64,000 nt of DNA from positions 64,001 through 128,000 of the IMG/VR virus record IMGVR_UViG_3300028591_000005, one strand, 5' to 3'. A model generated the notes under the pieces. That model ran no database searches. It was not told the DNA's origin and was given only the letters and a program-made list of their open reading frames with translations. Of the stretch, positions 56,545 through 56,673 are shown in pieces. This DNA comes from a virus (taxonomy: Duplodnaviria; Caudoviricetes). Both the position numbers and the translations under genes were made by a program. Position 1 is the stretch's first letter. Each line of letters opens with the position of its first letter.

Positions 56545-56673
56545 TACTGATGGCGGGACTCGAACCCGCACGGGATTTCTCCCAGCGGATTAATCTAGAC
56601 ACGAATTTACTAAATCTTGTTCAACTCATATCTAGGTTAAGTCCGCTGCGTCTACCAATTCCGCCACACCAGC
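56545..56673 (-). tRNA. tRNA-Leu(UAA) interrupted by a 45-nt hairpin insert (56592-56636)
   Basis: Perfect Leu body: GCGGA-CTTAA[insert]AA-TCCGC. Confidence 0.85.

Follow-up and report, generated by a model that had tools for sequence, protein, structure and literature searches.

A 45-nt hairpin insert in the anticodon loop of a phage tRNA-Leu(UAA) gene, a candidate protein-dependent mini-intron

The DNA analyzed here (the window, 64,000 nucleotides [nt]) comprises bases 64001–128000 of the IMG/VR record IMGVR_UViG_3300028591_000005, a complete rumen-phage genome of 145,977 bp with a 127-bp terminal repeat and a G+C content of 32.8%. Pieces of the window are contained in sheep-gut metatranscriptomes, and the host is presumed to be bacterial. 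The phage has approximately 23 tRNA genes, and only one of them is for Leu(UAA). This gene, at 56545–56673 on the minus strand, carries a 45-nt insert in its anticodon loop. Two other tRNA genes of the same genome are interrupted as well, tRNA-Asp by 848 nt with an HNH gene and tRNA-Asn by 59 nt.

The Rfam tRNA model (RF00005) covers 56545–56673 (−) end to end with 44.2 bits, leaving approximately 48 extra nt in the anticodon loop. ARAGORN calls the gene only when introns are allowed; it places a 45-nt intron with its boundary off by 1 nt, and because of this slide the gene is misnamed Ile-UAU. The position of the insert was fixed by alignment with eight tRNA-Leu(UAA) genes of related phages, all of which are uninterrupted: the 45 nt appear as one clean gap between A36 and A37, and the loop CUUAAAA is restored by this placement alone. 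A first-pass annotation, made from the letters of the DNA, had described an insert at 36|37 of an otherwise perfect tRNA-Leu and had called for a comparison with the tRNA-Leu(UAA) genes of related phages; the sequence that it quoted matches letter for letter, and the eight orthologues uphold the site. When the exons are joined in silico (...GACGCAGCGGACUUAA onto AAUCCGCUGGGAGAAAUCCC), an 84-nt class II tRNA-Leu(UAA) of canonical bacterial type is obtained, with a cloverleaf, a long variable arm, A73, and a 7-nt anticodon loop, and ARAGORN accepts it without the intron option. The variable arm specific to the phage gene is UGGGAGAAAUCCC. The bare junction GCGGACUUAA|AAUCCGC is present in 63 of 119 unrelated phage tRNA-Leu loci and hence is not diagnostic.

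The real kin of the phage were retrieved via a virion protein, which gave 22 loci with 50–72% identity on contigs of 10–165 kb (approximately 10 of the 22 on contigs of 120–165 kb), and these records were then searched for tRNA-Leu(UAA). A first set of supposed relatives (G002, G007, and G008) had come via the Ro60-like gene; they have only 4–17 of 186 open reading frames (ORFs) in common with the phage and are not true kin, so that a comparison of gene content for an intron-linked nuclease is pointless with them. The count of eight uninterrupted genes takes in G022, whose exons show 95 and 84% identity to those of the interrupted gene, and also G008, which shares a near-identical, uninterrupted tRNA-Leu gene without being true kin. 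The nine aligned genes have 25 pairs, 97.7% of the cells being paired, with compensatory changes in 17 of the 25; shuffles and slid registers all scored far below. Every stem pair is kept in the exons of the interrupted gene, with no decay, which marks it as an intact gene in a tRNA family that is under selection.

The codon usage of the phage bears on the need for this tRNA. UUA is its top Leu codon (46.5% of Leu codons, 34 per 1000), CUU is the second (37.5%), and the two Leu tRNAs of the phage (UAA and AAG) correspond to these two dominant codons. The tRNA-Leu(AAG) gene, which matches CUU, is located at 54164–54246 (−); A34 is unusual in bacterial-type tRNAs apart from Arg-ACG. The other two interrupted tRNA genes, Asn and Asp, decode AAU (60 per 1000) and GAU (57 per 1000). 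Codon demand argues that the tRNA-Leu(UAA) gene is used, although it is not proof.

Folded alone, the insert forms a stem of 13 bp (10 Watson–Crick and 3 G·U pairs) with a 15-nt loop at −15.5 kcal/mol (z = −6.3), and none of 200 shuffles was as good. The 13-bp hairpin noticed in the first-pass annotation is thus borne out, far better than chance. Since the three G·U pairs turn into A·C on the antisense strand, its fold reaches only −4.1 kcal/mol (z = −0.9); the hairpin is hence a property of the tRNA-strand transcript and not a palindrome of the DNA. In the predicted fold of the whole precursor (−21.5 kcal/mol, z = −5.6), the insert helix stacks onto the anticodon stem via UUAA:UUAA, made up of pairs between the terminal UU of the insert and A36/A35 and between A37/A38 and U34/U33. 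A rod of approximately 22 bp is thereby formed, composed of the 5-bp anticodon stem, a bulged C32, four A–U pairs burying U33–A36, a C·A mismatch, and the 13 bp. With its anticodon buried in the rod, the precursor would be unable to decode before removal of the insert.

The two junctions, A36|C and U|A37, are offset by two base pairs on the predicted helix, which continues through both of them, so that the excised hairpin would have a 2-nt 3′ overhang. Bacterial RNase III cuts both strands of double-stranded RNA (dsRNA), leaving 2-nt 3′ overhangs with 5′-phosphate and 3′-OH ends, and it accepts hairpins as short as 34 nt (PMC1540722). For a substrate of approximately two turns of dsRNA with at least ~11 bp to the loop, the modeled RNA offers 14 helix positions between the cut site and the loop within the ~22-bp rod, and the junctions fixed by the orthologues give the stagger of a 2-nt 3′ overhang. 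The junctions would thus be exactly in the register of a bacterial RNase III product. The first-pass annotation had named a dsRNA nuclease that leaves such an overhang as an alternative, and this suggestion fits the fold of the Leu insert exactly.

Several known classes of intron and element were considered for the insert and rejected. Group I introns are longer than 200 nt, have a conserved P3–P9 core, follow a U (the U·G pair in P1), and end in G. The insert is only 45 nt long and has no match to RF00028 in Rfam, whether at E ≤ 1 or at E ≤ 10; the last base of the 5′ exon is A36 instead of U, the insert ends in U and not in G, and the site is 36|37 and not U34|A35. The remark in the first-pass annotation that it is too short for the group I intron of tRNA-Leu(UAA) therefore holds. 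A group II intron or a small ribozyme was rejected because the insert is a simple rod with no Rfam match even at E ≤ 10. The helix is continuous with one 1 × 1 mismatch and a 1-nt bulge, and the two 3-nt bulges of a bulge–helix–bulge intron are absent. As to a transposable or palindromic element, no target-site duplication is needed to account for the junctions, there is no second copy, and the antisense fold is weak. The ACAGCAA motif of the Ro60-associated "handle" tRNA mimics of the same operon, which consist of a small hairpin and this motif in the anticodon arm and are found at 56133–56249 and in copies of relatives, is missing from the insert. BsMiniIII, a Mini-III enzyme, cuts ACC^U; with the ACCU at the 5′ junction, cleavage would land 2 nt into the insert, and the opposing strand has a mismatch.

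The Asp and Asn inserts, as well as inserts of 437–868 nt in relatives, start with an acceptor-like stem of 6–7 bp followed by TAGTTTAA and have a T-arm-like hairpin at the end. The D-arm-like TAGTTTAA motif and the T-loop are both absent from the Leu insert, which has 13 bp plus a C·A mismatch and a 15-nt loop, not 12 bp and a 7-nt loop; it contains neither a T-arm-like hairpin (5 bp with a UUCG/GUCG-type loop of ~7 nt) nor a 12-bp minihelix. What the Leu insert has in common with them is a 5′ junction at the first basal-helix position and an AUU right after the helix; the first-pass annotation had pointed out the ATT in the Leu, Asp, and Asn inserts. This likeness appears to be the sole, weak link of the Leu insert to the tRNA-shaped inserts. 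Apart from the trailing ATT, there is no sequence similarity to the Asp and Asn inserts except a short loop motif, CAAG(G)AUUU(G)AG, common to Leu (56608–56622, −) and Asn (60865–60885, −), the two inserts without an ORF. In the form (C)AAG(G)AUUU(G)AG, this motif occurs 34 times in ~1.2 Mb of both strands, mostly in coding DNA; as its ungapped core is common in the AT-rich genome, it is weak evidence of kinship and may be due to chance. Membership of the minihelix family, as proposed in the first-pass annotation, was not borne out, since TAGTTTAA, the T-loop, the stem and loop sizes, and sequence similarity are all wanting. On present evidence, the Leu insert does not appear to be a demonstrable member of the tRNA-shaped family.

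Many tRNA genes of the related phages are interrupted, and the group I model matches none of them. Split tRNAs with the 437–868-nt inserts are located at L323:4077–4997, L327:15808–16749, L342:819–1602 and 5865–6426, L344:5225–5785, L333:9325–9847, and L335:19140–19868, and in several of these inserts, as in the Asp insert, a 7-bp stem at the start leads into (A)TAGTTTAA. A tRNA of class II, read as Ser(GCU), is interrupted at 36|37 by a 699-nt insert (L325:10327–11108, +, and L342:2176–2958, −; genomes G017 and G016). With two further inserts in the same genome and many in its kin, the phage lineage tolerates split tRNA genes, and they are normal there, gained and lost between genomes as mobile introns are. 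A conserved 138-nt tRNA-like gene was also observed in G016–G018 (L324:3639–3778, L332:7109–7247, and L343:5649–5787); its anticodon arm looks normal, position 33 is a C, and ~50 nt of additional sequence form a domain ahead of the T arm. In G023, a class II tRNA-like gene (L335:17300–17418) has a second T-arm-like hairpin (CACGGTTCGATTCCGTG) inside a 7-bp stem, which may be a tRNA-shaped mini-insert.

No second copy of the Leu insert was found in this genome, IMG/VR, the JGI metagenomes, or one genome each of 185,579 GTDB species. In IMG/VR, the 16-mer at the end of the 5′ exon retrieved more than 119 tRNA-Leu genes, all uninterrupted or with long group-I-like inserts; the pattern GCGGACTTAA-N30-60-AATCCGC gave 95 matches, all by chance in coding DNA; a looser N12-42 pattern gave 30 matches, none of them a tRNA intron; and the 19-mer of the insert loop gave one match, which was coding. 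The pattern with 27 specified bases had no match in the JGI metagenomes, and the scan of GTDB genomes gave two, both truncated tRNA fragments. With blastn-short against the whole genome and all loci, just AT-rich 11–17-mers in coding DNA were obtained, and two loop matches of 15–16 nt in relatives were coding too. Short hairpin inserts were absent among ~350 tRNAs of unrelated phage loci and ~200 tRNAs of relatives; calls by ARAGORN with introns allowed on the other loci were mostly false (variable arms and Ro60 "handle" RNAs). The first-pass annotation had stated that an insert unique to this genome, with no conserved pairing, would speak against its proposal: the insert is indeed unique in these searches, and conserved pairing is not demonstrable from it.

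As to the candidate processing enzymes, the RNA ligase of the phage (Table 1) is homologous to the nick-sealing ligase of Naegleria (NgrRnl, PDB 5cot). NgrRnl-like ligases join 3′-OH to 5′-phosphate ends. Genes for a kinase and a metallophosphoesterase sit two genes beyond the ligase gene. A free-standing HNH homing-endonuclease gene (34647–35534, −) adjoins the phosphoesterase, kinase, and ligase genes. EndA (PF01974) and RtcB (PF01139) are absent from the complete phage genome, and Rnl1 had no match in the phage in a search that also missed all 14 control genomes.

Table 1. Features of the tRNA-Leu(UAA) locus, candidate processing enzymes, and RNA loci of relatives
Feature	Position	Strand	Basis
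5′ exon, 37 nt: acceptor 5′ strand, D arm, anticodon-stem 5′ strand, C32 U33, anticodon U34 A35 A36	56637..56673	−	Rfam, ARAGORN, alignment with eight uninterrupted orthologues
Insert, 45 nt (candidate mini-intron), between A36 and A37	56592..56636	−	exact gap in orthologues; excision yields canonical tRNA
5′ arm of 13-bp stem, insert nt 2–14	56623..56635	−	fold
15-nt apical loop GAACAAGAUUUAGUA, insert nt 15–29	56608..56622	−	fold; no T-loop consensus by eye
3′ arm of 13-bp stem, insert nt 30–42	56595..56607	−	fold
A-U-U tail of insert; A opposite insert nt 1 (C·A mismatch), UU pairs with A36 and A35	56592..56594	−	fold, sequence
3′ exon, 47 nt: A37 A38, anticodon-stem 3′ strand, long variable arm, T arm, acceptor 3′ strand, A73	56545..56591	−	Rfam, in silico joining, alignment
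RNA ligase, 415 aa, Rnl5/NgrRnl type, N-terminal OB domain and PF09414; candidate sealing enzyme	38320..39567	−	PF09414 73.7 bits, PF21189, PDB 5cot E 3e-35, phrog_968
P-loop kinase, possible end-healing enzyme	36154..36678	−	AAA_33; PHROG polynucleotide kinase
Metallophosphoesterase, possible 3′-end healing enzyme	35601..36161	−	domain and PHROG match
ROOL RNA loci of relatives	L325:7962-8562, L333:8426-9033, L342:4785-5385, L344:1017-1606		
tmRNA locus of relatives	L335:18416-18763		
c-di-GMP-I riboswitch locus of relatives	L327:1873-1946		

Here, we propose that the insert is probably a mini-intron that depends on proteins and is removed by them in some way. This weighting overlaps those of the three protein routes discussed below, and all such weightings are rough estimates. 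The reading that fits best, although unproven, is that of a mini-intron formed by a hairpin with its junctions in the RNase III register, and its removal by RNase III together with a ligase is a serious possibility, though one that falls short of an even chance. In this mechanism, a dsRNA-specific nuclease, most simply host RNase III, would cleave the rod on both strands, one cut falling directly after A36 and the other behind the final U of the insert. The cuts would free the hairpin with its 2-nt 3′ overhang and leave a 3′-OH on the 5′ exon and a 5′-phosphate on the 3′ exon. The tRNA halves would be held together by the acceptor, D, and T arms and the anticodon stem, and the ATP-dependent Rnl5-type ligase of the phage would seal A36 to A37 to give the 84-nt tRNA-Leu(UAA). 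More generally, we suggest only tentatively that there are phages with protein-only tRNA splicing, in which a hairpin that masks the anticodon is removed by host RNase III, a general dsRNA nuclease, and the halves are resealed by an RNA ligase of the phage, with a second, tRNA-shaped class of inserts coexisting in this genome.

A number of points weigh against the RNase III mechanism. The exon side of the proposed cut has only ~7 interrupted bp, and the site rules of RNase III are known mainly for the E. coli enzyme. RNase III is not encoded by the phage; as RtcB and EndA are lacking too, the cutter would be a host enzyme or an unrecognized phage protein. Rnl5/Rnl2-type ligases favor nicks in duplex RNA over breaks in a 7-nt loop. 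PF09414 ligases are also present in G002 and G007, in which no interrupted tRNA-Leu was seen (none was found in G008), and the evidence of the ligase is therefore permissive, not specific. The Ser(GCU) insert of the relatives is bordered by a helix that comprises at least 14 bp and takes in the anticodon, but its stagger is read as 3 nt, not 2. Basal stems of 6–7 bp disqualify the Asp and Asn inserts as RNase III substrates, and a single mechanism for all three inserts would thus not be RNase III. Because the Leu insert is a singleton, its pairing has no covariation support. Finally, the spliced joint 56591>56637 is absent from the contigs of four sheep-gut RNA runs, which cannot show rare or small RNAs; the unspliced form was likewise not seen in them. 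The only joint within the gene (56574>56638), with a loose end AAUCCGUCGG, belongs to an uninterrupted tRNA-Leu of another organism.

That the insert is not an intron and is never removed is a doubtful but substantial rival. The gene would then be recently disabled, with the host supplying tRNA-Leu(UAA), or would encode a tRNA-shaped RNA with another role (a decoy or partner RNA). The uniqueness of the insert, which all eight orthologues lack, agrees with this, as do the unseen spliced RNA and the lack of any short hairpin insert among the tRNAs of unrelated phages and relatives; moreover, the same operon has tRNA look-alikes with ~45-nt inserts, part of the Ro60-like protein system and probably non-decoding. 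The exons, however, are free of decay with all stems intact, the tRNA reads the most used Leu codon of the phage, and the hairpin is kept at the RNA level, its G·U pairs being restricted to the sense strand. It is without the ACAGCAA "handle" that the Ro60-associated RNAs have, and the target-site duplication and second copy expected of a transposable element are both missing. A self-cleaving or self-splicing RNA is scarcely credible: the anticodon-loop position, known for group I introns, is all that recalls one, and against it stand the simple 45-nt rod, the lack of an Rfam match at E ≤ 10, and the ends of the 5′ exon (A) and the insert (U).

The minihelix route, by which the first-pass annotation explained the insert, is in our estimate improbable. 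RNase P would cut at nt 1 of the hairpin (with C·A as 1:72), an RNase Z-like 3′ endonuclease would cut 2 nt past 72, and the phage ligase would join the ends, the same as for Asp and Asn. One pathway for every insert in the genome would be simpler. RNase P and RNase Z leave 3′-OH and 5′-phosphate ends that suit the ligase, and RNase P cuts hairpins, such as the 4.5S RNA precursor and minihelices. In favor of the proposal is the placement of the junctions: as in Asp, the 5′ junction is at the first basal-helix position and the 3′ junction is 2 nt past the last, with AUU in all three inserts. Against it is the substrate itself, since the T-loop and the D-like TAGTTTAA are missing, 14 helix positions and a 15-nt loop are found instead of 12 and 7, and the pairing of positions −1 to −4 with those from +73 on (UUAA:UUAA) leaves neither leader nor trailer single-stranded. 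When −1 pairs with 73, RNase P cleavage is shifted or blocked, as in tRNA-His, and RNase Z normally cuts after 73, which here would leave one U too many and an anticodon loop of 8 nt. There is a similarly small chance that an unrecognized endonuclease of the phage or host, of the anticodon-nuclease or toxin type, leaves 5′-OH and 2′,3′-cyclic phosphate at both junctions, which a kinase and a phosphoesterase would heal before the ligase seals them. The kinase and metallophosphoesterase near the ligase form a set like T4 Pnkp–Rnl or bacterial Pnkp. No candidate nuclease was identified, however, the archaeal-type splicing endonuclease and RtcB being absent from the phage, and such repair sets are common in phages as counter-defence, so that an intron is not required to explain them.

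Protein-catalyzed tRNA splicing is regarded as an archaeal and eukaryotic trait, and to our knowledge only self-splicing tRNA introns are established in bacteria and phages. "Enigmatic" tRNA introns were reported in Lak megaphages and a 595-kb phage, with no mechanism proposed (Devoto et al. 2019, PMC6784885). The Lak inserts are mostly 79–141 nt and partly tRNA-like with GGTTCGAAT T-arms, and Table S6 of that paper gives, without comment, "possible introns" of 23 and 52 nt in the 595-kb phage, including one in a tRNA of class II (PMC6784885). Like them, the Leu insert is of a non-group-I type, interrupts the anticodon loop of a phage tRNA, and is optional between related genomes; it differs in being a bare 13-bp hairpin, and splice geometry and an enzyme set are not discussed for Lak. 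Nothing closer was found in the literature beyond this report; two jumbo-phage reviews (2021 and 2026) add nothing. With the RNase III hairpins (T7 R1.1 and the 34-nt minimal substrate; PMC1540722), the insert shares, in its predicted geometry, more than one helical turn of dsRNA and offset cuts with a 2-nt 3′ overhang, whereas the known sites separate RNAs or trigger decay, with no known case in which the flanks are religated.

In cyanobacteria, plastids, and some phages, the same loop of tRNA-Leu(UAA) is interrupted by a group I intron, and several phage tRNA-Leu(UAA) genes in IMG/VR have long inserts resembling this type. None of its marks (>200 nt, site U34|A35 after a U, final G, and RF00028 match) is true of the Leu insert. 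The archaeal and eukaryal tRNA introns (EndA/TSEN with RtcB or Trl1) are likewise short, lie in the anticodon loop, pair with the anticodon, and are removed by an endonuclease and a ligase, as proposed for the Leu insert, but they are located at 37|38, have two 3-nt bulges around a 4-bp helix, and involve the opposite end chemistry. In T4 repair by Pnkp/Rnl1, a phage ligase rejoins a broken anticodon loop, which is the candidate role here of a ligase homologous to the nick-sealing Rnl5 enzyme NgrRnl; the T4 system answers damage by a host nuclease, not programmed excision, and Rnl1 was unmatched in our phage by a weak search. If the proposed mechanism is true, it would be a third way of tRNA splicing beside group I self-splicing and the archaeal/eukaryal endonuclease route. 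It would also explain the short inserts of huge phages reported in 2019, show how phages tolerate mobile elements in their most used tRNAs, and provide a means of timing or protecting tRNA activity during infection. For annotation, standard bacterial tRNA finders miss or misname such genes, as in the present call. The locus is a small testable case, with a 129-nt precursor, unambiguous boundaries, a geometry that names a candidate enzyme, and the ligase, kinase, and phosphoesterase in the genome.

Directly after the Leu gene lies a tRNA-Gly(UCC) gene (56468–56539, −) with a degenerate T arm (GGGGGCAGAACCC), which ARAGORN misses and Rfam scores at 43.8 bits. The 118-nt spacer at 56350–56467 shows no significant structure, and the hammerhead-like CUGAUGA within it was rejected because there is no room for the hammerhead helices. 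The stretch 54481–56249 (−) holds the gene of the Ro60-like protein (DUF2828, DUF7788, and VWA) together with the ACAGCAA "handle" tRNA look-alikes that precede it; handle-tagged tRNA mimics are also found in unrelated phage loci (L036:6054–6173 and L054:1407–1529). In the tRNA clusters of relatives, ROOL RNA (261–275 bits), tmRNA, and a c-di-GMP-I riboswitch are also carried (Table 1), whereas ROOL has no match at 44000–64000 of the window. A tRNA-Phe-like gene at 60247–60320 (−) is given an 8-nt anticodon loop ("gaaa") by ARAGORN and 47 bits by Rfam, and could be a frameshift-type or odd tRNA. At 30487–32892 (−), an 801-aa protein has an N-terminal prokaryotic N-methylation motif of the type IV pilin-like kind.

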